Shown here: in pieces, positions 1,255 through 60,745 of the stretch
How the letters are laid out: each line of letters begins with the position of its first letter
Position numbering within the stretch: the stretch's first letter is position 1
NCBI GenBank assembly: GCA_016286205.1
Contig: JAEESF010000009.1
Coordinates: forward strand, 15,314-79,313
From: Paludibacteraceae bacterium
Lineage (GTDB): Bacteria; Bacteroidota; Bacteroidia; Bacteroidales; Paludibacteraceae
Length of the DNA: 64,000 bases
Direction of reading: 5' to 3'
Position numbers and translations under genes: made by a program
The notes under the pieces: generated by a model
Database searches by the model: none
What the model saw: the letters and a program-made list of their open reading frames with translations, nothing else
Told to the model about the DNA's origin: nothing

Positions 1255-2781
1255 ATGGAACTTTCAGAACAAGAATTAGTAAGGCGGCAGAGCCTGCAAA
1301 GCATGCGCGATTTGGGCCTTGATCCATACCCCGCTGCCGAGTATGTAGTAACCGGTTATTCTACCGATATCAAAGCCAATTTTGACCAATTGGATGGCAA
1401 AGACATTCGCATTGCCGGGCGACTGATGTCGAAACGAATAATGGGTAAAGCATCGTTCATCGAGTTGCAGGACTCGAAAGGACGTATTCAGGTCTATGTT
1501 AGCCGAGACGACATTCAGGCTCCGCTTGCCGAAGGCGAGCAACCGACCTGCGTGGAGCAGCAAATGTACAATGTCGTTTTCAAAAAACTATTAGATATTG
1601 GCGATTTCATCGGCATTGAAGGCTTTGTTTTCCGCACACAAGCCGGTGAGATTAGCGTTCATGCTAAGAAACTAACGGTGTTAGCCAAAAGTCTGCGTCC
1701 TCTGCCAATCGTTAAATACAAAGATGGTGTGGCTTACGATGGATTCAATGATCCGGAGCAGCGTTATCGTCAACGTTATGTAGATTTGGTAGTAAACGAT
1801 GGTGTAAAAGATACTTTCTTGAAACGTGCCACCATTCTGCGTACGATGCGTCAGGTATTTGACGAGGCCGGTTATACCGAGGTCGAGACACCTATTCTGC
1901 AACAGATAGCAGGTGGTGCCAGTGCACGCCCATTCATCACGCATCACAACACGCTTGATGTAGATATGTACTTGCGTATCGCGACTGAGTTATATCTAAA
2001 ACGACTGATTGTAGGCGGTTTTGAGGGTGTATACGAGATTGGACGTAATTTCCGTAATGAGGGAATGGACCGTAGCCATAATCCGGAGTTCACATGCATG
2101 GAATTGTATGTACAATACAAGGACTACGAATGGATGATGAGTTTTACCGAGAAACTACTAGAACGCATTGCCATTGCCGTAAACGGTACCACCAAAGTGC
2201 AGATTGGCGATCATGAGGTAGATTTCAAGGCACCTTACCGCCGCTTGCCTATATTGGACGCTATCAAAGAGAAAACAGGCCTAGATCTAGCTAACATGAG
2301 CGAAGATGAGATTCGTGTAGAGGCTAAGAAGTTGGGCGTGGAAGATACGGAAACTATGGGACGTGGCAAACTGATTGACGAGATTTTCGGTGAGACATGC
2401 GAAGGTACGTTTATTCAACCGACGTTTATCACCGACTATCCGGTAGAGATGTCGCCGCTAACCAAGATGCACCGCAACAAACCCGGACTAACCGAACGAT
2501 TTGAGTTGATGGTTAACGGTAAGGAGCTGGCAAACGCATATAGCGAGCTAAATGACCCGATAGATCAGTACAACCGCTTTGTAGAGCAAATGAAACTTGC
2601 AGACAAGGGCGATGACGAAGCCATGGTCATAGACCATGATTTCATGCGTGCATTGGAATATGGCATGCCTCCAACATCGGGTATTGGTATCGGAATTGAC
2701 CGTCTGGCTATGTTCATGACCGGTCAACCGACCATACAAGAAGTATTGTTATTCCCAACAATGAAACCGGAAAATGTATAG
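1255..2781 (+). CDS. lysS: Lysine--tRNA ligase (class II)
   Basis: 508-aa ORF with class II motifs EIGRNFRNEGMDRSHNPEFTCMELY and GMPPTSGIGIGIDRLAMF, plus an N-terminal OB-fold region. Confidence 0.95.
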   Translation: MELSEQELVRRQSLQSMRDLGLDPYPAAEYVVTGYSTDIKANFDQLDGKDIRIAGRLMSKRIMGKASFIELQDSKGRIQVYVSRDDIQAPLAEGEQPTCVEQQMYNVVFKKLLDIGDFIGIEGFVFRTQAGEISVHAKKLTVLAKSLRPLPIVKYKDGVAYDGFNDPEQRYRQRYVDLVVNDGVKDTFLKRATILRTMRQVFDEAGYTEVETPILQQIAGGASARPFITHHNTLDVDMYLRIATELYLKRLIVGGFEGVYEIGRNFRNEGMDRSHNPEFTCMELYVQYKDYEWMMSFTEKLLERIAIAVNGTTKVQIGDHEVDFKAPYRRLPILDAIKEKTGLDLANMSEDEIRVEAKKLGVEDTETMGRGKLIDEIFGETCEGTFIQPTFITDYPVEMSPLTKMHRNKPGLTERFELMVNGKELANAYSELNDPIDQYNRFVEQMKLADKGDDEAMVIDHDFMRALEYGMPPTSGIGIGIDRLAMFMTGQPTIQEVLLFPTMKPENV

Positions 2782-3763
2782 AAGAATTGCTATTTTAGGT
2801 TCTGGTTCTTGGGCCACTGCCTTGGCTAAGATAGTCATGCAGAACCAACCGGAAATCAACTGGTTTATCCGTCGTCAGGAGGTGATAGACGAGTTTATTG
2901 CCTCAGGCAAAAACCCGACTTATCTTGGCGCCGCTAATTTTGATGTGAGTCGTATCCACTTCTCGTCAGACATCAACCAGACCATCACGCAGTCGGATGT
3001 ACTGATTTTGGCCATTCCATCTCCGTATGTCAAACAATCGCTGATGAAGATTCGGCGCAACATGACCAGCAAAGTAGTCATTTCTGCTGTCAAAGGTATG
3101 ATACCTGATGACAACGTCATCATCACCGACTATCTGCATCGTCGTTTCAATGTGCCAATGGACCAACTGGGTGTTATTGCGGGCCCGTGCCATGCAGAGG
3201 AGATTGCGCTAGAACGACTTAGCTACCTAACTATCGGTTGTGAGAACCGCACGAATGCGGAACTGATGGCACAATTATTCCGCACAGAATACGTACAGAC
3301 AACCACTTCTAGCGATGTAGTAGGACTGGAATACAGTTCTGTGATGAAGAATATTTACGCGATTGCTGCGGGAATGTGCCAGGCGCTGCACTATGGTGAC
3401 AATTTCCAGGCCGTGCTACTGAGCAATGCCATCCAAGAGCTGCAACGCTTTGCAACGGCTATGAGCAATGCGCCGCGTGATATTACGGCATCCGGTTATC
3501 TGGGCGATGTTCTGGTGACGGGTTATTCGCAATTTAGCCGCAATCGTCAGTTTGGCCAAATGCTAGGTATGGGATATTCGGTCAAGGCGGCTCAGATGGA
3601 AATGGAAATGGTAGCCGAAGGCTATTATGCCACAAAGGCCATCCATCTGGCCAACGAACGCATGCAAGTAGCATTGCCTATCGTAGACGCCATGTATGAG
3701 ATTCTCTACAACCGCCAGAAGGCTAAACCAATTATCAAATCGTTAACATCAAAACTACAATAA
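2774..3763 (+). CDS. gpsA: NAD(P)H-dependent glycerol-3-phosphate dehydrogenase
   Basis: 329 aa with N-terminal [12 protein letters not shown] dinucleotide fold and [10 protein letters not shown]. It overlaps the lysS stop by 8 nt. Confidence 0.9.
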
Positions 3764-6404: not shown

Positions 6405-6440
6405 CAAAGGTACAAAAAATGTACCAAAGCACAAAATTTT
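6405..6440 (-). promoter_or_regulatory. Promoter for the DUF5103-like gene (-7 TACCTTTG)
   Basis: The reverse complement reads ...ttttgtgctttggtacattttttgTACCTTTGcagccgtaaATG. The -7 box ends about 10 nt before the ATG, so the leader is very short. Confidence 0.45.
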
Positions 6441-6450
6441 TTGCTAATTA

Positions 6451-6482
6451 TTTGCACATTTCAAAAAAAAGCAGTACTTTTG
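6451..6482 (+). promoter_or_regulatory. Promoter cassette for tRNA-Thr (-33 TTTGCA, -7 TACTTTTG)
   Basis: The sequence is TTTGcacatttcaaaaaaaagcagTACTTTTGca, about 30 nt upstream of the mature tRNA 5-prime end. Confidence 0.7.
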
Positions 6483-7001: not shown

Positions 7002-7033
7002 TTTGCGTATGTCAGAAAAAAGCAGTAAATTTG
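7002..7033 (+). promoter_or_regulatory. Promoter cassette for queH (-33 TTTGCG, -7 TAAATTTG)
   Basis: The sequence is TTTGcgtatgtcagaaaaaagcagTAAATTTGcg. The ~55 bp upstream (gtacgttttttcataaaatcaagtcaaaatttgcgtat) is near-identical to 42717-42760. Confidence 0.7.
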
Positions 7034-36597: not shown

Positions 36598-37500
36598 TTA
36601 CATTCCAAACTTATACGCTTGCATCACATTTTGTAGTAACGAGGCGATCGTCATAGGTCCTACTCCGCCCGGCACAGGTGTGATATAGGCGGCTTTAGGT
36701 GCTACGTTATCAAAATCAACATCGCCTACTACGCGATAGCCACGTGGCGCTTTAGGGTCCTCTATGCGATTGATACCTACGTCGATCACTGTTGCGCCTT
36801 CTGCCACCATATCTGCTTTTAGCAGTTTGGGACAACCGGCCGCTACGATGATGATATCCGCTGTGCGACAGACAGCTGCCAAGTCGCGTGTTTTGCTATG
36901 GCAGATAGTGACCGTAGCATCGCCTATGGCAGACGAGCTCATGCCCGGGAAACTCAAGTACGGGCGCTGCATCAGCAACATCGCGATAGGTTTGCCCACG
37001 ATGTTGGATCGGCCTATGACCACTACGTGCTTGCCTTCGGTAGAAATATGATACCGCGCCAATAGTTCACGAATACCTCGTGGTGTAGCACCGATGATGG
37101 AAGGCAATCCAAGCACCGTACGTCCCACATTGGCAGGCGTCAGGCCATCCACATCTTTGCGATAATCTATAGCCGCCAGGATGTTCTGCTCGCTAATATG
37201 TTCCGGCAGCGGCGACTGGACGATGAAACCGTCTATGTTGGGATCGTTGTTGAGTCGATATATCTCTTGAAGCAAGGTCTGCTCGGTGATGTATTCTTCG
37301 TACGCAATCTTCTCCGCCTCGATGCCCACTTCTGCGCAAGCTTTCAGTTTGTTGGCCACATAGGTCTCGCTGGCCGGATTATGGCCGACGATGATGATAG
37401 CCAAGCGCGGAACACGTTTGCCTTCCGCCTTCAGCCGTTCTACCTCGCTGTGCAGTTCCCCGCAAATCTCTGCCGCTATTTTCTTACCGTCTATAATCAT
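36598..37500 (-). CDS. folD: Bifunctional methylenetetrahydrofolate dehydrogenase/cyclohydrolase
   Basis: 300 aa with YVANKLKAC, VIGRSNIVGKPIA and TPVPGGVGPMT. Confidence 0.93.
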   Translation of the reverse strand: MIIDGKKIAAEICGELHSEVERLKAEGKRVPRLAIIIVGHNPASETYVANKLKACAEVGIEAEKIAYEEYITEQTLLQEIYRLNNDPNIDGFIVQSPLPEHISEQNILAAIDYRKDVDGLTPANVGRTVLGLPSIIGATPRGIRELLARYHISTEGKHVVVIGRSNIVGKPIAMLLMQRPYLSFPGMSSSAIGDATVTICHSKTRDLAAVCRTADIIIVAAGCPKLLKADMVAEGATVIDVGINRIEDPKAPRGYRVVGDVDFDNVAPKAAYITPVPGGVGPMTIASLLQNVMQAYKFGM

Positions 37501-38798
37501 CAGCGCTTACGCATTTGCTGCACTTTCTTCATCATCTTGCTGGTCTGGTCAAACTGCTTGAGGAAGCGGTTGAGCGCCACTATATCTACGCCTGCGCCTT
37601 TGGCGATACGATTCTTTCGGCTACCATTGAGCAGACCTGGATTCGCACGCTCAGCCGGCGTCATCGAATTGATCATGGCTTCGATGGGCTTGAACGCATC
37701 GTCGCTGACGTCGATATTCTTCATTGCCTTGTCCATACCCGGAATCATGCCCATCAGGTCTTTCATCGAACCCATTTTCTTGATCTGGTTGAGTTGGCCG
37801 ATGAAATCATTGAAATCAAACTGATTGTGGGCAATCTTCTTGCTGATTCGGCGTGCTTCGGCTTCGTCGTACTGCTCTTGAGCACGTTCTACTAGGCTGA
37901 CGACGTCACCCATACCCAAAATACGGTCGGCCATACGAGCCGGATGGAACACATCGAGCGCCTCCATCTTCTCGCCCGTTCCGATGAACTTAATTGGCTT
38001 GTTGACCACCGAACGGATAGATAGAGCGGCACCACCACGTGCATCGCCATCGAGCTTGGTCAGTACCACGCCATCAAAATCGATGCGGTCGTTGAATTCC
38101 TTGGCAGTATTCACTGCGTCCTGACCGGTCATAGCATCCACTACGAACAGCGTCTCAGAGGGAGAAATGGCTTTCTTAATAGCCTCTATCTCCTGCATCA
38201 TCTGCTCGTCCACGGCCAGACGACCAGCGGTATCGACGATCACTACGTCGTAACCCAAACGCTTGGCCTCGGCTATAGCATCTTGGGCTTTCTTGACGGG
38301 ATTAGCCTCTCCTTCGCCGGTATAGACCTTCGCATTGATCTGCTCGCCTAGTACGCGCAACTGCTCGATGGCAGCAGGACGATAGACGTCGCAGGCGACC
38401 AGCATGACGCGTTTGTTCTTCTTGGTCTGCAACCAGTTAGCCAGTTTGCTGGCAAAAGTGGTCTTACCGGAACCCTGCAAACCGGACATCAGAATGACAG
38501 CAGGCGAACCTTTTAGGTTCAGTTCCTGTGCTTCGCCGCCCATCAGTTCTGCCAGTTCGTCGTGCGTGATCTTGACCATCAACTGTCCGGGACGTACACT
38601 GGTCATGACGTTTTGGCCCAGTGCTTTCTCTTTCACCTGGTCAGTAAACTGCTTGGCGGTCTTGTAGTTGACATCTGCTTCCAGCAGCGCTTTGCGGATA
38701 TCCTTGACTGTTTCCGCAATGTTTATTTCGGTAATACGGCCTTCACCTTTTAGGATTTTGAACGACCGTTCCAGTCTCTCTGATAGATTATCGAACAT
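37500..38798 (-). CDS. ffh: Signal recognition particle protein Ffh
   Basis: 432 aa with GLQGSGKTT, DTAGR, TKLDGD and a Met-rich M domain (MGSMKDLMGMIPGM). Confidence 0.95.
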   Translation of the reverse strand: MFDNLSERLERSFKILKGEGRITEINIAETVKDIRKALLEADVNYKTAKQFTDQVKEKALGQNVMTSVRPGQLMVKITHDELAELMGGEAQELNLKGSPAVILMSGLQGSGKTTFASKLANWLQTKKNKRVMLVACDVYRPAAIEQLRVLGEQINAKVYTGEGEANPVKKAQDAIAEAKRLGYDVVIVDTAGRLAVDEQMMQEIEAIKKAISPSETLFVVDAMTGQDAVNTAKEFNDRIDFDGVVLTKLDGDARGGAALSIRSVVNKPIKFIGTGEKMEALDVFHPARMADRILGMGDVVSLVERAQEQYDEAEARRISKKIAHNQFDFNDFIGQLNQIKKMGSMKDLMGMIPGMDKAMKNIDVSDDAFKPIEAMINSMTPAERANPGLLNGSRKNRIAKGAGVDIVALNRFLKQFDQTSKMMKKVQQMRKR

Positions 38799-38821
38799 AG
38801 TACTCCAAATTAAATCGGCCG

Positions 38822-38856
38822 CAAAATTACTAAAAAATTATCAAATATACAAATAT
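38822..38856 (-). promoter_or_regulatory. Promoter for ffh (-7 TAATTTTG)
   Basis: The reverse complement reads tttgtatatttgataattttttagTAATTTTGcggcc. Confidence 0.6.
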
Positions 38857-38861
38857 TTGAC

Positions 38862-38886
38862 AAAAAAAAGCACCCCGAAGGGTGCC
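38862..38886 (-). terminator. Rho-independent terminator ending the small-ORF operon
   Basis: On the minus strand, GCACCC-UUCG-GGGUGC followed by U8. It lies 8 nt after the stop of ORF 38894..39280. Confidence 0.85.
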
Positions 38887-38893
38887 GAACGCG

Positions 38894-39280
38894 TTACGGA
38901 TTCTGCTGATCGTACGCATCTCCGCAGACTTTCCAGAGGTAGGAGACAAAGGTCTTCTTGCCGTTGGGTTGGTCCTTTTGCGCGACGAAAGCGGCTTGGT
39001 CGGCTGCTATAGTGCCCAGGTTCTGACGGCGTGCTGCGACTGCGCGGCTAACTGCTGCGAACTTAGTACGGCGGTCCAACTCATCCTGATTGGGCAAGGT
39101 AGAGCGGTTGTACTCACCTACGGCGTAGAGCCGTGTGCATACGGGGTTCAGCGTCGGTGCTGTGCGGTGTGTCGCTAGCAGTGCACTCGAGTGCGAACTG
39201 TGTGCCTGACCTTTTTTCGGTCGCTTACTCAATAATCCGGAAACATACTCGATTCCTTTCATCCATTTTACAATAGCCAT
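38894..39280 (-). CDS. Small hypothetical protein, paralog B (128 aa)
   Basis: ORF in an operon with 39309..39614. It shares MA....M....SG.L, P..(Q/E)...R.KF..V..A.AA and AF..Q. patterns with the upstream ORF. I recognise no family with confidence. Confidence 0.6.
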   Translation of the reverse strand: MAIVKWMKGIEYVSGLLSKRPKKGQAHSSHSSALLATHRTAPTLNPVCTRLYAVGEYNRSTLPNQDELDRRTKFAAVSRAVAARRQNLGTIAADQAAFVAQKDQPNGKKTFVSYLWKVCGDAYDQQNP

Positions 39281-39308
39281 AATAATTAAGGTTTTTGGTT
39301 TTTATTCA

Positions 39309-39614
39309 TTAATCTCCTAATTTTGCATACTCTTGTGCGAACATATAGCCGCGCAAGGTTTTGTACTCTTTTTGTTTTCTAAACGCTGTTTCATATGCGT
39401 CTTTTTCTTCTTGGGTCAAAGCTGCTATTGCTATCACAACTTGTTTGAATTTGTTACGTTGTGCTATCTGAAGTGCACTCGGCTCTCCGGTAAACGGATT
39501 ACATATCTTACCGGTGTAGAGCGTTCCGTTTCTGTTAGCAAAATAGACATCTGAATGACCACACAATTTCCCGCTAAGGGATAGCAACAATTCCATTGGA
39601 ATATATTTTGCCAT
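39309..39614 (-). CDS. Small hypothetical protein, paralog A (101 aa)
   Basis: MAKYIPMELLLSLSGKLCGHSDVYFANRNGTLYTGKICNPFTGEPSALQIAQRNKFKQVV... It is the first ORF after the long leader and lies 28 nt upstream of paralog B. Confidence 0.6.
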   Translation of the reverse strand: MAKYIPMELLLSLSGKLCGHSDVYFANRNGTLYTGKICNPFTGEPSALQIAQRNKFKQVVIAIAALTQEEKDAYETAFRKQKEYKTLRGYMFAQEYAKLGD

Positions 39615-39784
39615 TGTTTACTGACAAACTTTTTTTACCCGCATTGTCTTCTCGGGGTTAAGGATAATAGGTTTTCGCATCTTCTCTTAAAAATTCATCT
39701 TCTTTATGTGCACATATGTTAAATTCCTTTCTTCTTACATATTATAAATGAATAGATATAGTAACCCCTTGACGTATTTCGTAC

Positions 39785-40085
39785 ATTTTTCACCCGCCCG
39801 ACCGGTTCTACGGTCGTCCCGATTCCCTTCTCGGGCTGTACAGGGCGGTGCCATTTCGTTATAACCTGTTATTACCGCTGGACGATCAATCCCAGAGGAT
39901 GACGAGCTAAAGTGGTTCCCCAAAGCGCCTAACCACTGGCGGCATAGCCTGACGTTATAACTCGCAAACGCAGCGCACCGGCATGTCTTAATAGGTGCAT
40001 GGCTTCTTAGTTTTCGGGGGCTCCGATTATTGCCGAAGGGACATCGGTTCTTTTTGTTTCGCGCAGAACCGGCTGCATCGCTTTT
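39785..40085 (-). ncRNA. Candidate structured RNA / cis-regulatory leader core (unclassified)
   Basis: GC-rich (roughly 55 percent by eye) block inside an AT-rich, ORF-poor 660-bp gap and downstream of a TACCTTTG -7 box. At least 7 hand-found helices (coordinates in the findings). The strand is inferred from the promoter, the downstream operon and one G-U pair. Confidence 0.4.
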
Positions 40086-40136
40086 GCTTATAGAGCAAAC
40101 AATTATGTAAGAACGAGACTTCTCTCAAATTTTGTA

Positions 40137-40170
40137 CAAAGGTACTACTTTTTTTTCATCTAAAAAAGTC
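40137..40170 (-). promoter_or_regulatory. Promoter driving the leader RNA and small-ORF operon (-7 TACCTTTG)
   Basis: The reverse complement reads gacttttttagatgaaaaaaaagtagTACCTTTGtacaaaatttgag. The -33 region is T-rich but has no clean TTTG. Confidence 0.5.
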
Positions 40171-40219
40171 CGTGTCGAAAATTCTGTAATTAAGTGTTTT
40201 ATTGCCGGTTTATTGTAAT

Positions 40220-40242
40220 CCCTGTACATTTTATGTACAGGG
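40220..40242 (-). terminator. Perfect 10-bp hairpin after ORF 40276..40863 (CCCTGTACAT-ttt-ATGTACAGGG)
   Basis: Read directly. There is no clear U-tract, which I believe is common for Bacteroidota terminators. Confidence 0.5.
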
Positions 40243-40275
40243 AAAACCTATAATACCATTAAACTGCAGTTGTGC

Positions 40276-40863
40276 TTATGCTACAACGTCCAACAATCGA
40301 TCAATACTCTCCTCGTCCGGAAAGAAACTCCAAAATAACCCAAAAATAGGACTGAACGCGATGTCGGCTTCTTCGAATAAACGACGCATATCAATTAATG
40401 GACCATCTCCATCATCTATAAAAGACCGCAAAGGAGTGTCTTTACGTCTCCTTTTATATTTCTGAATGGTCTCATAGTCTGACAAAACAAAGTAACTGGC
40501 AATCACATAGGCGACATACCAATCTTCGGCATTCGAATAATAATCATTGCCAATTTTTGCCATGTCGGCCTTAAAACGCGCAGATGTCATTAGAGCCAAT
40601 GCCTCATTTATCAATGCCTCTTCTAAATCGGCGTAGGACAGTCGCTCTGGACGAACTACTTCCCAGTACGCGCGTTTCAAACATGCTTTTAAAACCTTTT
40701 CCGTCTGGCGTTTCTCCTTATTAAATAGGTCCCAAAACGCTGCCAGCACCATCTCTACTGGACTTTTTTCATTACTCTTCTCTCCTACGGAGAAAGTCTT
40801 TGAGGAATCTAGTTCCTCGTTCTCTTGCCCTGTAACACAAGGCGTTACTAAATCATTCACCAT
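40276..40863 (-). CDS. Hypothetical protein (195 aa), no recognisable family
   Basis: Single long ORF in AT-rich DNA with an acidic N-terminus and a helical body (LKACLKRAYWEVVRPERLSYADLEEALINEALALM). It has its own promoter and hairpin. Confidence 0.55.
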   Translation of the reverse strand: MVNDLVTPCVTGQENEELDSSKTFSVGEKSNEKSPVEMVLAAFWDLFNKEKRQTEKVLKACLKRAYWEVVRPERLSYADLEEALINEALALMTSARFKADMAKIGNDYYSNAEDWYVAYVIASYFVLSDYETIQKYKRRRKDTPLRSFIDDGDGPLIDMRRLFEEADIAFSPIFGLFWSFFPDEESIDRLLDVVA

Positions 40864-40962
40864 ATATCAAATGAATTTTTGAATTTGCCGAAAATATCTC
40901 TATCGAACGGATCTCGAACCGATAAGCTAACCTTATCCACCCGCGTATCTTGAAATCTGATG

Positions 40963-40970
40963 CAAAATTA
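40963..40970 (-). promoter_or_regulatory. Putative -7 box (TAATTTTG) for ORF 40276..40863
   Basis: Reverse complement of caaaatta, about 100 nt upstream of the ATG. Confidence 0.35.
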
Positions 40971-41071
40971 CATAAAATCTCCGACCTAAAAAACCTTTTT
41001 ACGATTTTTATATAACATAGTTATATAAACCCAGTTTAATCCATCTTCACCTCATCTCTCATCCACAAAAA

Positions 41072-41103
41072 TACAAAAAAAGAGTCTAACAAAAGTTAGA
41101 CTC
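41072..41103 (-). terminator. Rho-independent terminator after the BACON lipoprotein gene
   Basis: On the minus strand, GAGUCUAAC-uuuu-GUUAGACUC followed by U7. Confidence 0.8.
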
Positions 41104-41126
41104 GTAATTTTCACTGTTGCAAATGT

Positions 41127-42068
41127 TTATTTATCACAGACTGGACGCACCAATAAACCATCATTCCGGAAATGAGAATGGACAACATATGGATCATATG
41201 ATTTCACTAAAGCGTAACTACAAGCTCGATCATTATAAACCTCATCTACTGTTGAACACCAATAGAGACAAGTTTGCTTAGAGTAACTAGAAGATCCGCC
41301 ATATGCGTATTGAACCCAAGGCATGTATATGGTATTACTATTAGGGCCTGTTATGCGATAGCCATCCCCTTCTCTTTCATTCGAACATTTCTTTGCAAAT
41401 TCTTCAAATTCTTCTTTCGTCGGCATTCTCCACTTTCCGCCCCATTTCACATGGGCAACATCATCGGATAAAACCAACACCCTTTTATTATCTATAACTC
41501 CATAACGGCTATTTGTAACATATTTTGTATATTGTTTTGTTGAAGAATCATAAAACGAATACTGTGCTTCCGTATAGGTCTCTGGTCTGGGACTCGTTTC
41601 TCCCCAAGCATAAAATGTTCCATTGTCCGTTTCAGAAGAAGCGCCGACATTCATGGTCGCCCAACGAACACTCAATCCTAAATCTACCCAAGCATGACCA
41701 TTTTCTACTCCCGAACTTACCACCAAACGTTTAATAGTTAGAATAGCAGACCCGCTTCCATTACTGAACATCACTTTTGCAGAATCCGTGGGACCTGCAG
41801 CTACTGTGACTGTTATAAAAGCGTCACCTTCTCCACTCTCTGGTGAGAATGTTACCCAAGAACAATTGGTCGTGGCAGTCCACGTTTTAGAGGAAGTTAG
41901 TGTTACTGAATAACTTCCCCCTGTTCCGTCATTTTTTATGGTATTTGGACTACATTTAATGGAGGAAGACGGAGATATTGGAGAATCTTCGTTGTTATTT
42001 GTTCTTTCGCACCCTGCTAACGCGAAACAAAGTACAGAGGCTAAAATGGTATTAATTATCGTTTTCAT
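41127..42068 (-). CDS. Lipoprotein with N-terminal BACON-like Ig domain and C-terminal DUF1566/FISUMP-like domain
   Basis: 313 aa with lipobox LCFALAGC. The BACON-like segment is GGSYSVTLTSSKTWTATTNCSWVTFSPESGEGDAFITVTV. The C-terminal part has GHAWVDLGLSVRWATMNVGA...GTFYAWGE...WRMPTKEEFEE. Family names are from memory. Confidence 0.65.
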   Translation of the reverse strand: MKTIINTILASVLCFALAGCERTNNNEDSPISPSSSIKCSPNTIKNDGTGGSYSVTLTSSKTWTATTNCSWVTFSPESGEGDAFITVTVAAGPTDSAKVMFSNGSGSAILTIKRLVVSSGVENGHAWVDLGLSVRWATMNVGASSETDNGTFYAWGETSPRPETYTEAQYSFYDSSTKQYTKYVTNSRYGVIDNKRVLVLSDDVAHVKWGGKWRMPTKEEFEEFAKKCSNEREGDGYRITGPNSNTIYMPWVQYAYGGSSSYSKQTCLYWCSTVDEVYNDRACSYALVKSYDPYVVHSHFRNDGLLVRPVCDK

Positions 42069-42094
42069 ATCATTGTATCTTTTACAATTTCACA

Positions 42095-42349
42095 TTAAAT
42101 ATATAATGGTTCAAGAAGCTCCATATCAGCGAACACTTCACTATAGCTTTGCTTTAATTCAGCAAGAGCCTCCTTTACTTTTCCTTGTTCTGTGACAAGT
42201 AGAGTAAATGGATGCTTTTTCCCATCGGTCGTTATGACTTTGCCATATACTACAACAGAGACATTTGTCGTGTTGTCAAAAATAAGTTCTAGATGCCCCT
42301 CGCATTCTAATGCATGTGCATACTCTTTAGTAATTGGAAGTTTTTTCAT
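42095..42349 (-). CDS. Small hypothetical protein (84 aa)
   Basis: First ORF of the operon with the BACON lipoprotein (26-nt spacer). No signal peptide and no recognisable family. Confidence 0.5.
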   Translation of the reverse strand: MKKLPITKEYAHALECEGHLELIFDNTTNVSVVVYGKVITTDGKKHPFTLLVTEQGKVKEALAELKQSYSEVFADMELLEPLYI

Positions 42350-42680
42350 TGTATATATAATATTTTACCCCTCTTACACCTTCAGGGATTGGTATAACAA
42401 AAAGCGCGGGTAACTGTTGTTATCCGTGCTAGTGGTCGTAGGAAACCATGTGGTCGGAGAAACAAGCAGTTACTCGCGTTGCGTATATATTAGTACACTT
42501 ACCTAGTGTAAGATACATCATAAATACACACGTGAGCATCTACTTCGTCTTGTTCCTGAACCACTTGAAAGTTCCTACGTTCCTAGCATCAGAAAACAAG
42601 CGTGTAAACGCTTTTAATCAATATGTCCTTCTGTTTACCGTCGGTAAGCGACGACATTGGTCTCAAAAACCTTTGCGGCG

Positions 42681-42714
42681 CAAAGGTACAACAAATTTTT
42701 TATATGTGCAAATA
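42681..42714 (-). promoter_or_regulatory. Promoter cassette pointing into the island (-33 TTTGCA, -7 TACCTTTG)
   Basis: The reverse complement reads TTTGcacatataaaaaatttgttgTACCTTTGcgcc. This implies a ~325-nt leader before ORF 42095..42349. Confidence 0.6.
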
Positions 42715-42746
42715 AATGTACGTTTTTTCATAAAATCAAGTCAAAA

Positions 42747-42778
42747 TTTGCGTATATCAGAAAAAAGTACTACTTTTG
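42747..42778 (+). promoter_or_regulatory. Promoter cassette for the PagL-like gene (-33 TTTGCG, -7 TACTTTTG)
   Basis: The sequence is TTTGcgtatatcagaaaaaagtacTACTTTTGca. Confidence 0.7.
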
Positions 42779-42800
42779 CACTCGCAAAAGTTCGAAACAA

Positions 42801-44189
42801 ATGCGGAAGATAGGAATAATCATATTACTGACGGTGGGTTCGCTCGCCTGTTGGGCGCAGGACCAATGGGCCAACAGCGAACTCTTTGCCACCAAACCAG
42901 AACAGCCCAAGATAGACTATCGTCTGTCGTTGCGGGCGGGTATGATTATGCCTGACGGCAAAGTGGACGACATGCTCGGTCAGAAAGGTGAATGGGTAGG
43001 TCCGACCATTGGCGGCGAATTTGCTATGACATTTCATCCCAAATGGTCTTCGCTGCGCGATTGGAACGGTGCCGCCGTAGGCGTGGCGCTGAGTTACTGG
43101 AAATTTGACTGCACGCGTTGGGGCGCGGAAGATATAACCGGTCACGCCATTGCGCCATACGCCTTTGTAGAAATACCTTTCTACACGCATCGCTACTTCG
43201 AGATTGGTGTTCGTCCGGGTATAGGCTGCTCGTTCATCACCAGGACCTACTACAACACCACGACAGAAGAAAACAGATACACCTCGCTACAGGTAGAGGG
43301 TGTCAACCGCTCGGTGGGTTCGGTATTCAATTTCTATTTCCCAGAGGCGCTATACCTGAATTTCCCGATTCGTGATGGCTGGTCGATCGGCATAGCAGGC
43401 GGTTGGTACCACATGAGTAACGGTAGTCTGCGTCAGCCGAACTCGGGATACAACATGTTCATGGGCGAACTGGCCGTGCATTATCAGCCGTACAAAGACG
43501 AGAAGCGAACTACGTTCGGTGAGAGTTACCTGATAGAAGAAAAAGAGGCGGAAGATCCGCGCGAGTATATCGTTGCTCCTCTGACGGACGACAAGAAAGA
43601 AAGTCTGAATGCAATGCAGAAAGCGCATTGCGAACTGGAACTGTCGCTGAGCGGAGGTGCCAGACAAGTGTATTACAAGGACCGTCAGTCGTTCTTCTGC
43701 TCGGAGATGCAACTGGCCGCCTACTGGCGTGCACACAAGATTTTCCGTTTGGGCGGAGGTGTTGATGTGTTCTATGACGGCGCATACACCGACCGCGAAA
43801 CCGCGTTTGGCAAGACCTATCTAGGCGGTGCTACGCAGACCGATTGTTGGCGCGTGGGACTGAGCGTACAACCGGAATTTGTGATAGGCAAATTTACTGC
43901 CGGTTTCCATTTTGGCATGTATGTGTTCGACCCTGTCAAGAACCGTGAAGCCAAGACAGGAACAGACGAATACAACAAGCTCTGGACCGAACACAAGACA
44001 CTAGATAAACCTTTGGTTTACGGCTACGATCTGCTGAACGCAGGTAGTGCGGGTTATCCGGACGGTTGGCTCTATACGCAGATAGTGCTGCGCTATCGTT
44101 TCCCGTACCATTTGTTTGCCCAACTGGCCATGAAAGCCCACCTGACGAAAGTGGAATTTGTTTCGGCAGGCGTGGGAGTGTATTTGTAA
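42801..44189 (+). CDS. Acyloxyacyl hydrolase (PagL-like lipid A deacylase) family outer-membrane protein with long C-terminal extension
   Basis: I chose the start at MRKIGIIILLTVGSLACWAQ. The motif GGWYHMSNGSLRQPNSGYNMF matches the H-x-S-N-G catalytic motif. The total of 462 aa is about twice a canonical PagL barrel. Confidence 0.6.
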   Translation: MRKIGIIILLTVGSLACWAQDQWANSELFATKPEQPKIDYRLSLRAGMIMPDGKVDDMLGQKGEWVGPTIGGEFAMTFHPKWSSLRDWNGAAVGVALSYWKFDCTRWGAEDITGHAIAPYAFVEIPFYTHRYFEIGVRPGIGCSFITRTYYNTTTEENRYTSLQVEGVNRSVGSVFNFYFPEALYLNFPIRDGWSIGIAGGWYHMSNGSLRQPNSGYNMFMGELAVHYQPYKDEKRTTFGESYLIEEKEAEDPREYIVAPLTDDKKESLNAMQKAHCELELSLSGGARQVYYKDRQSFFCSEMQLAAYWRAHKIFRLGGGVDVFYDGAYTDRETAFGKTYLGGATQTDCWRVGLSVQPEFVIGKFTAGFHFGMYVFDPVKNREAKTGTDEYNKLWTEHKTLDKPLVYGYDLLNAGSAGYPDGWLYTQIVLRYRFPYHLFAQLAMKAHLTKVEFVSAGVGVYL

Positions 44190-46462: not shown

Positions 46463-46494
46463 CAAAAGTACTGCTTTTTTTTGACATATGCAAA
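46463..46494 (-). promoter_or_regulatory. Promoter cassette for the GT2 operon (-33 TTTGCA, -7 TACTTTTG)
   Basis: The reverse complement reads TTTGcatatgtcaaaaaaaagcagTACTTTTGcagcc. Confidence 0.7.
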
Positions 46495-46554
46495 TAAAAA
46501 CCAAAGATTTTTGATAGCATTTTTTAAGAAAAAGTATTACTTTTTTCTTAGAAA

Positions 46555-46586
46555 TTTGCATATGTCAGAAATTTGTTGTACTTTTG
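46555..46586 (+). promoter_or_regulatory. Promoter cassette for the lptD-like gene (-33 TTTGCA, -7 TACTTTTG)
   Basis: The sequence is TTTGcatatgtcagaaatttgttgTACTTTTGcagg. Confidence 0.7.
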
Positions 46587-60707: not shown

Positions 60708-60745
60708 GCAAAGATACAACAAATTTTGCATTTATGCAAATTTTT
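60708..60745 (-). promoter_or_regulatory. Promoter for the DUF349-ftsE-sufE operon (-7 TATCTTTG)
   Basis: The reverse complement reads tttgcataaatgcaaaatttgttgTATCTTTGcagg. Confidence 0.6.

Follow-up and report, generated by a model that had tools for sequence, protein, structure and literature searches.

Leader elements that control transcription elongation include ops/JUMPStart with RfaH, the EAR RNA of the eps operons of Bacillales and the UpxY-dependent capsule leaders of Bacteroides. These are conserved elements situated between the promoter and the first gene for a surface glycan or surface protein, contain a terminator and are found in several copies per genome. The accessory DNA of the Bacteroidales includes genomic islets, variable patches of surface-protein and glycan genes, which are low in GC, inserted in intergenic promoter regions, patchily distributed and loaded with lipoprotein and orphan genes. 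Two further regulatory elements invite comparison: the DUF805b motif (RF02914), a cis-regulatory hairpin of Bacteroidales, and a 77-bp inverted repeat with the asSuGR RNA in the K-antigen locus of Porphyromonas gingivalis, in which arms of 77 bp enclose a loop several hundred bases long; this element also codes for an antisense RNA of 550 nt and was proposed by its authors to act in antitermination (PMC8757827). Here we describe a block of 3.85 kb between ffh and a PagL-like gene in a Paludibacteraceae bacterium (assembly GCA_016286205.1), together with its leader RNA, here called R1, and its gene pair p101/p128. The block was first delimited as positions 38862-42714 of the stretch analyzed, a window of 64,000 nt which corresponds to C14:15314-79313; the genome comprises 2.03 Mb in 22 contigs, is rated as 100% complete and has a mean GC content of 47.6%.

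The block is probably a small accessory islet, specific to the species and set into the once-tight divergent promoter region of ffh and the PagL-like gene; it would be a mosaic, with material of three kinds. The first would be a surface-lipoprotein operon (p84 and p313) with the standard promoter of the lineage and a leader RNA of ~220 nt, so that lineage-typical regulatory DNA appears joined to an orphan and a paralogous lipoprotein; the second would be the orphan gene p195, and the third the cut-down tail of a phage-flavoured cassette of small genes, of which p101, p128 and a terminator would be left. Since these parts have different histories, the block is read as a mosaic and not as one self-contained mobile island, and its assembly appears to have been stepwise, by recombination in the variable gene pool of the lineage, and not by one transfer from a distant donor. 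As an island the block is ordinary; two of its components, the leader RNA family and the multi-copy gene pair, are undescribed.

The five minus-strand open reading frames (ORFs) are present where a preliminary description of this DNA had placed them (Table 1), namely with ffh (37500-38798, minus strand; SRP54 domains), backed by folD, on one side and the gene for the PagL-domain protein (42801-44189, plus strand) on the other. They are grouped here in three putative transcription units (TU), i.e., TU1 (p84 and p313), TU2 (p195) and TU3 (p101 and p128). That the block is AT-rich between flanks of about 50% GC was borne out by windowed profiles: the GC content of 500-nt windows over 39250-42750 is 0.35-0.45, as against ~0.50 in both flanks, and 39281-42750 has 39.4% GC, as against a mean of 47.6% (standard deviation 2.8%) for genomic windows of 3.5 kb, just 1.1% of which are equally low. 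The dip is also real at the level of coding composition, in which four of the five genes have a low GC content at third codon positions (GC3; percentile 0.4 for p84, 0.9 for p313, 2.7 for p101 and 6.6 for p195, relative to 1378 long ORFs of the same genome with a mean of 0.522 and a standard deviation of 0.072); ffh and the PagL-like gene are found at the 93rd and 86th percentiles. The compositional exception is p128, with a GC content of 0.54 and GC3 at the 84th percentile. The low-GC block thus begins at ~39281 and not at 38862, ~400 nt shorter than first claimed, and the original extent holds for 39281-42750 and fails at the p128 end.

Low-GC patches like this one are common in the genome (28, with 121 kb in total), and the island as such adds little. 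The patches span 2-17 kb and include one of 16.6 kb (C7:147800-164400) and one of ~17 kb at the start of C12. Some of them adjoin other copies of p128 or the second copy of R1; four of the eight p128 copies are located in such patches, as compared with ~1.6 expected, a count from coordinates that is too weak to use. As one of these patches, the block resembles the genomic islets of the Bacteroidales in its low GC content, its insertion in an intergenic promoter region, its lipoprotein and orphan cargo and its patchy distribution. It differs from them in that it has no integrase, tRNA target or direct repeats, and in that on the ffh side it ends in a multi-copy gene rich in GC instead of an attachment (att) site.

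Evidence for an insertion comes from 60 other genomes of the genus, in 55 of which ffh was located and in 47 the PagL-like gene. Both genes are adjacent and divergent in three species (G016, G044 and G076), with gaps of ~180-250 bp by tblastn coordinates and of ~103 nt (G044) and ~190 nt (G076) when read directly, which leaves room for promoters only; G076 also shares with our genome the gene beyond PagL (g317). With the tight junction empty in three species and the island thus variably present, the block is regarded as an insertion, and the simplest reading would be an ancestral tight junction into which 3.85 kb were inserted in the lineage of our organism. The opposite view is quite improbable; it would make the block an ancestral segment which the relatives have deleted or rearranged, and would explain the low GC content by accessory genes that are weakly expressed and subject to relaxed selection or AT-biased drift. 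It can draw on the heavy rearrangement of the genus at this place, where each of 16 out of 20 species has a different sequence upstream of ffh, with matches at scattered positions of our genome, and on the species G057, in which ffh is immediately preceded by a set of genes in the same orientation (a p101-like gene, one for a 66-aa lipoprotein and one of the p128 family) that closes with a terminator whose 16-nt core (GCACCCTTCGGGGTGC) and T-run are identical to those of the TU3 terminator. Against it stand the three species in which nothing but promoters separates ffh and PagL, and the rarity of the cargo, since p84 is absent from 120 genomes of the genus and p195 occurs in only one other cluster among 5.8 billion proteins. 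The G057 p128-family protein, moreover, is 48% identical to p128 while ffh is 89% identical, which is not the pattern of a simple orthologue.

The G057 arrangement argues that the site upstream of ffh may have been used repeatedly; it may reflect an old shared insertion with subsequent cassette replacement, or repeated targeting of the site. The G057 locus (L172, G057:C69:26000-29272) carries the gene set at 1836-3200, and the contig ends 1 kb further. None of the 20 ffh flanks compared contains any of the island genes. A metagenome contig from another sample (L164) has the same arrangement with 99.96% identity over 12.6 kb; the islet is thus stable in the organism, and this near-identity is uninformative on variation.

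According to the preliminary description, the block was an island of three self-contained units, perhaps acquired horizontally. This view, in which a single island would stem from a low-GC donor and its integrase and attachment sites would be lost or act in trans, is unlikely. The uniformly low GC3 of p84, p313, p101 and p195, the clean insertion between two promoters, the linkage of p195, p101 and p128 in another organism and the lack of p84 and p195 homologues in the genus would all fit it. However, p128, whose GC content is native or higher, belongs to a set of seven old paralogues within the genome; both the promoter and the leader RNA of TU1 are typical of the lineage (of 100 genomes of the genus, 36 carry the latter); and paralogues of the p313 N-terminus are encoded in the same genome. 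The parts thus differ in composition and distribution, and a single coherent island of three self-contained units could not be upheld.

The co-occurrence of the genes elsewhere is partial. On the metagenome contigs L044 and L045, homologues of p195, a 257-aa gene, and homologues of p101 and p128 follow each other in this order, and p101 and p128 are very often found together as a conserved pair. All five genes together were not seen outside the species, and p84 or p313 was never seen there with p101/p128; co-occurrence applies to the p101/p128 pair and, once, to p195 with both, and not to the whole set. Traces of a mobility mechanism are missing, as had already been stated in the preliminary description for integrase, transposase and direct repeats: no integrase or transposase domain was detected in the island proteins (Pfam, NCBIfam, PHROG), flanking direct repeats or a target-site duplication were not found besides look-alikes of the promoter boxes, no tRNA is located near the island, and the island DNA yielded no match to phage and plasmid records.

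The first of the undescribed components is the leader RNA of TU1. The 330-nt leader has a folding energy of -107.4 kcal/mol as compared with -77 kcal/mol for shuffled sequences (z = -6.4), and is 13 kcal/mol more stable than the opposite strand (-94.3 kcal/mol). An alignment of 24 sequences yielded the model R1, which comprises a 5' hairpin (P0), an extended hairpin of ~180 nt (P1-P5), a 3' hairpin (T1) and a U-tract. Within this alignment 90.8% of the cells are paired, whereas 33-47% are paired when the partners are slid by one to three columns; 28 of the 64 pairs show changes on both sides, and the covariation score is 0.255, versus at most 0.089 for the slid versions. None of 500 shuffles reached the observed values. 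Relatedness among the sequences is corrected for by the slid-partner controls and not by the shuffles of covariation counts; both agree. Helix P4 contains conserved G-U pairs (GU at columns 93-178 in 23 of 24 sequences, UG at columns 88-183 in 19 of 24).

The 3' half of T1 can also pair with the 3' strand of P4, which gives a second helix (T2). This helix is 90.9% paired in the alignment, with compensatory changes in five of its 12 pairs, and its pair at columns 176-251 switches from AU to GC, a switch which the long-hairpin model does not explain. In the window, T2 keeps 11 of its 12 pairs and lies immediately ahead of the U-tract, and P4 competes with it for 42467-42475. With T1 and T2 both abutting the U-tract and T2 as an alternative, mutually exclusive pairing, the TU1 leader has the anatomy of a conditional terminator, i.e., the leader RNA would act as an attenuator. 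The same leader element precedes surface-glycan and surface-protein genes across the Bacteroidales.

By blastn, 36 out of 100 further genomes of the genus carry the R1 element, frequently in several copies each. A covariance model built on the trimmed alignment matched 20 of 151 genomes, which come from 19 of the 148 genera sampled in the order; single genomes had as many as 11 matches. Our genome contains one further copy (C18:118103-118325; locus L167), located before the gene for a secreted SH3-domain protein. Among the genes that follow the 24 aligned elements, eight encode glycan enzymes (GT4, GT2, GT32-like, Acyl_transf_3, FdtA, GtrA, GINT1_N); the other copies are mostly followed by genes for lipoproteins, for leucine-rich repeat (LRR) proteins of the BspA type, or for small proteins of unknown function and then lipoproteins. 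R1, from the window and from six other leader loci, matched no family of Rfam 15. That R1 represents an undescribed family of structured leader RNAs, absent from Rfam, is well supported by comparative sequence analysis. The family is multi-copy, occurs in about one in eight of the genera sampled in the order and is placed ahead of genes for glycosyltransferases, acyltransferases and surface proteins; it could be a general switch for the expression of surface structures in gut Bacteroidales.

R1 shares with ops/JUMPStart, EAR and the UpxY-dependent leaders the position, the conservation, the terminator and the multiple copies per genome. It differs from them in that it shows no sequence or Rfam relation and no evident dedicated NusG paralogue, and in that it consists of the ~180-nt extended hairpin with a switchable 3' helix. 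A partner of the UpxY or RfaH type was considered; the whole genome has a single NusG-family gene (PF02357), so a dedicated partner is not evident. The P. gingivalis repeat is, like R1, a large hairpin near the 5' end of a surface-glycan operon; unlike it, R1 is a compact hairpin of 220 nt with a short apex, and the analogy, drawn from the published description, is functional only. DUF805b differs from R1 as a separate hairpin of 35 nt which is absent from the island. In three species it is located 14-115 nt downstream of R1 (L057:1774-1808, L065:1462-1496 and L067:1871-1905), and both elements may act in series. At L167, DUF805b lies further downstream of R1 (2516-2550), before the gene for a 99-aa membrane protein. 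Regarding R1 as a MITE (miniature inverted-repeat transposable element) was rejected, given its one further copy in the genome and its constant position in 5' leaders.

The second undescribed component is the pair p101/p128. Seven full-length copies of p128 and additional fragments were found in the 2-Mb genome, with protein identities of 65-94%; the DNA similarity among these loci ends at the ends of the coding sequences. The copies have 55-57% GC throughout, and with synonymous divergences (Ks) of 0.39-1.25 and ratios of nonsynonymous to synonymous divergence (Ka/Ks) of 0.08-0.14 they are old and under purifying selection. The other copies are located at C14:96997-97380, C18:16863-17246, C20:24127-24507, C21:78619-78999, C7:140458-140841, C5:133210-133587 and C16:95460-95612. 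Homologues of p128 form at least 505 protein clusters (63-93% identity; 231 representatives at the 50% clustering level) and contain no Pfam domain. Of 100 further genomes of the genus, 32 contain the gene (1-19 matches each), and it was found at 407 loci in named genomes, mostly metagenome-assembled genomes from rumen and gut that are labelled Paludibacteraceae or uncultured Bacteroidales, often at contig ends. For p101, at least 498 clusters of homologues were found, and its distant paralogy with p128 is indicated by BLASTP (E 0.004) and HHalign (probability 89%, E 2.3e-6).

AlphaFold2 models of both proteins show a confident C-terminal three-helix bundle and a poorly predicted N-terminal half; in p128, the predicted local distance difference test score (pLDDT) is above 85 for residues 60-128 and below 50 for residues 1-56. 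The alignments reveal invariant His and Cys positions in the N-terminal half of p128 and p101; conserved residues of this kind are H27, H30, H38 and C48 in p128 and C18, H20 and C38 in p101. Foldseek searches with the p128 model (PDB, BFVD) and the p101 model (PDB) gave no match with E below 0.5, the p128 sequence profile matched no PDB sequence, and NCBIfam, PHROGs and PADLOC yielded nothing significant for the five island proteins. The pair thus represents highly conserved small proteins without known fold relatives, which mark a cassette that breaks metagenome assemblies. Two long proteins match p128 repeatedly, P0360 (1853 aa) in seven stretches and P0385 (489 aa) in five; they may be tandem arrays of p128 domains or translation artefacts.

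In other genomes, a cassette of small genes, 4-5 kb in length, recurs with p101 and p128 as its core. In one order, an HNH_3 endonuclease gene is followed by WYL_2 or another gene for a protein of ~140 aa, several small genes of unknown function, a membrane protein, DUF5675, a small lipoprotein and p128; in the other, p101 and p128 come first, then the membrane protein, then DUF5675 and last a small protein or lipoprotein. In some cases a DUF3987 primase-like gene is found nearby. PHROG relatives exist for the HNH (phrog_99), WYL_2 (phrog_1086) and DUF5675 (phrog_1501) members, and DUF5675 was proposed to be a C82-peptidase-like lysin domain (bioRxiv 10.64898/2026.04.11.717860). The island copy keeps p101, p128 and the terminator only; the HNH, WYL_2 and DUF5675 modules are absent. 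In our genome, the p128 copies on C7, C14, C18 and C21 close a recurring set of small genes of unknown function. Their products measure ~138 aa (C7, C18), 106-110 aa, 88-143 aa (p101-like; C7, C14) and 72-87 aa, together with a lipoprotein of 82-108 aa.

The fuller cassettes resemble cryptic prophage remnants and phage satellites in their HNH endonuclease, WYL_2, DUF5675 lysin-like and membrane proteins, their small lipoprotein and the occasional DUF3987 primase-like gene. Unlike these, they contain no recognized integrase or replication initiator and no capsid or terminase domain, have no relatives in IMG/VR or phage records, and occur as 1-19 diverged p128 matches per genome, with the copies of our genome under purifying selection. 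Cassettes just upstream of housekeeping promoters were seen at ffh (two species) and, elsewhere, at murC, prfA and pheS. Cassettes ending in p101/p128 may be a new, small, integrase-less and phage-derived selfish element of gut and rumen Bacteroidales that uses many intergenic sites, repeatedly upstream of housekeeping promoters, with the island as one that has captured a surface-lipoprotein operon under an attenuator RNA of a new class; this reading is tentative and rather doubtful. Targeting of p128 cassettes to promoters was tried as an explanation and rejected: a promoter lies no more than 300 nt away at 15 of the 74 loci, as compared with a background of 3% per 300 nt, which is about what any gene end would show and does not discriminate.

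Several observations weigh against the mosaic islet as outlined above. Because the ffh flank differs in 16 of 20 species, synteny in the genus is weak evidence. The nearest species in the comparison has ~82% DNA identity in ffh, so the timing and number of insertion events are not resolvable. Both T1 and T2 end at the U-tract, so that either may be the terminating helix and either, or neither, the anti-terminating one, and the transcription units, read-through and termination are themselves predictions from the DNA sequence. The label 'phage-derived' comes from the neighbours at other loci and not from the island itself; p128 relatives were not found in the viral contigs of IMG/VR (searched as protein and as profile), nor by tblastn in phage (50,697) and plasmid records.

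Regarding the region upstream of p101, the preliminary description had assigned a structured leader of ~520 nt with an RNA core to TU3. Folding of this sequence is no better than that of shuffles (z = +0.51 over all 521 nt, +0.14 over a core of 311 nt), Rfam searches of 38700-42900 gave nothing relevant even at E values up to 5 (at the gathering score the whole window yielded one tRNA and nothing else), and 39700-40135 has no homologue by blastn and tblastx in our genome or ~160 other loci, nor in any of 200 genomes of the family. Its structure was therefore not confirmed; of the long leaders claimed for two units, that of TU1 is strongly structured and that of TU3 is not. Conservation with close p101 loci is confined to the last ~75 nt, where 39615-39690 is 90-91% identical over 73 nt in L044/L045 and over 44 nt in L039, and is conserved in L155, too; the TTAACC(C)-plus-hairpin pattern was found again before more distant p101 genes. 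The remainder of the 'leader' would be mostly orphan spacer; 39700-40135 stands in the slot of the 257-aa gene of the L044 arrangement. An origin of the spacer from degraded cassette proteins or from that 257-aa gene was rejected, as no recognizable remnant was found.

It is accordingly very unlikely that p101 and p128 are controlled by the 520-nt leader as a novel riboswitch or other structured regulatory RNA, even though this leader stands after a -7 box, lacks a credible ORF that has a start codon, encloses, within an AT-rich block, a core whose GC content is close to that of the genome, and holds two copies of a hairpin motif of the CCCGAGAAG type (repeat family D17): the folding, the Rfam result, the missing relatives and the short conserved stretch all speak against it. 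What looks like a GC-rich 'RNA core' amid AT-rich DNA is not necessarily RNA.

Table 1. Positions of the features of the block and its borders in the window
Feature	Position	Strand	Basis or remark
ffh promoter cassette, in the flank outside the insert	38822..38853	-	two-box pattern; between TU3 terminator and ffh start (38798)
TU3 intrinsic terminator, GC stem, TTCG loop, T8	38869..38886	-	terminator scan; core GCACCCTTCGGGGTGC
p128, 128-aa basic protein, multi-copy family	38894..39280	-	no Pfam domain
p101, 101-aa distant p128 paralogue, conserved upstream partner	39309..39614	-	HHalign
p101-proximal conserved 5' region, TTAACCCC then short hairpin	39615..39690	-	identity with other p101 loci
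Orphan spacer, earlier 'RNA core', near-genome GC	39700..40135	-	no homologue, no fold signal
TU3 -7 box TACCTTTG, without strict -33 TTTG	40137..40144	-	read from sequence
Perfect hairpin 3' of p195, without T-run	40220..40242	-	read from sequence; not called by terminator scan
p195, near-orphan 195-aa protein	40276..40863	-	one other cluster
TU2 -7 box TAATTTTG	40963..40970	-	read from sequence; resembles ffh -7 region (repeat family D1)
TU1 terminator, 9-bp stem, T7	41082..41103	-	terminator scan
p313, lipoprotein	41127..42068	-	weak BACON and Lcl_C/DUF1566-like matches
p84, orphan 84-aa protein	42095..42349	-	no family match
Structured leader RNA, model R1	42397..42615	-	fold z-score and covariation
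R1 U-tract	42398..42404	-	
R1 short hairpin T1	42406..42427	-	
R1 long hairpin P1-P4	42432..42587	-	
R1 alternative helix T2	42467..42478 with 42405..42416	-	
R1 hairpin P0	42599..42612	-	
TU1 promoter cassette	42681..42712	-	two-box pattern; back to back with PagL promoter
PagL-like gene promoter	42747..42778	+	two-box pattern

Promoters were scanned for with the Bacteroidota-type two-box pattern TTTG-N17-23-TAnnTTTG, which occurs ten times in the window (1.4 expected) and 391 times in the genome. A promoter and a hairpin terminator had been proposed for each unit. For TU1, a promoter at 42681-42714 had been given, and a full two-box promoter is indeed present there; TU2 and TU3 carry -7 boxes only. 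Of the hairpins, those of TU3 and TU1 are followed by a T-run and were called as terminators, and the one downstream of p195 has no T-run. Further two-box promoters of the window, with conserved spacer, include those at 6405-6482, 7002-7033, 46463-46586 and 60709-60740.

The remaining proteins of the block are poorly represented in databases. For p195, no Pfam, NCBIfam, PHROG or PADLOC match was obtained; its one other cluster is 54% identical and is located on contigs L044-L046, beside genes for BspA-type LRR surface proteins. The p101 and p128 homologues at L044:7677-8400, and also those on the independent contig L045, each contain one in-frame stop, which could be decay or recoding. The search for p84 in other genomes of the genus remained negative in all 120.

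A signal peptide with a Cys lipobox is visible in the sequence of p313, whose Pfam matches are below the curated cut-offs (BACON, 21.5 bits with a cut-off of 25; Lcl_C, 18.1 bits with a cut-off of 34.9). The paralogues of its N-terminal 110-120 residues are encoded on contigs C3 and C10. A stretch of 43 nt at the 3' end of the leader and in the 5' untranslated region (42368-42410) is 93% identical to C3:23093-23136, just upstream of one of the p313 N-terminal paralogues; this hints that the end of the leader may have been duplicated along with the signal peptide and the BACON part. The PagL-domain protein on the other side of the junction comprises 462 aa and matches PagL in its first half alone, and many of its relatives match it in two stretches apart from each other, so that its architecture may comprise two domains or a variable linker.

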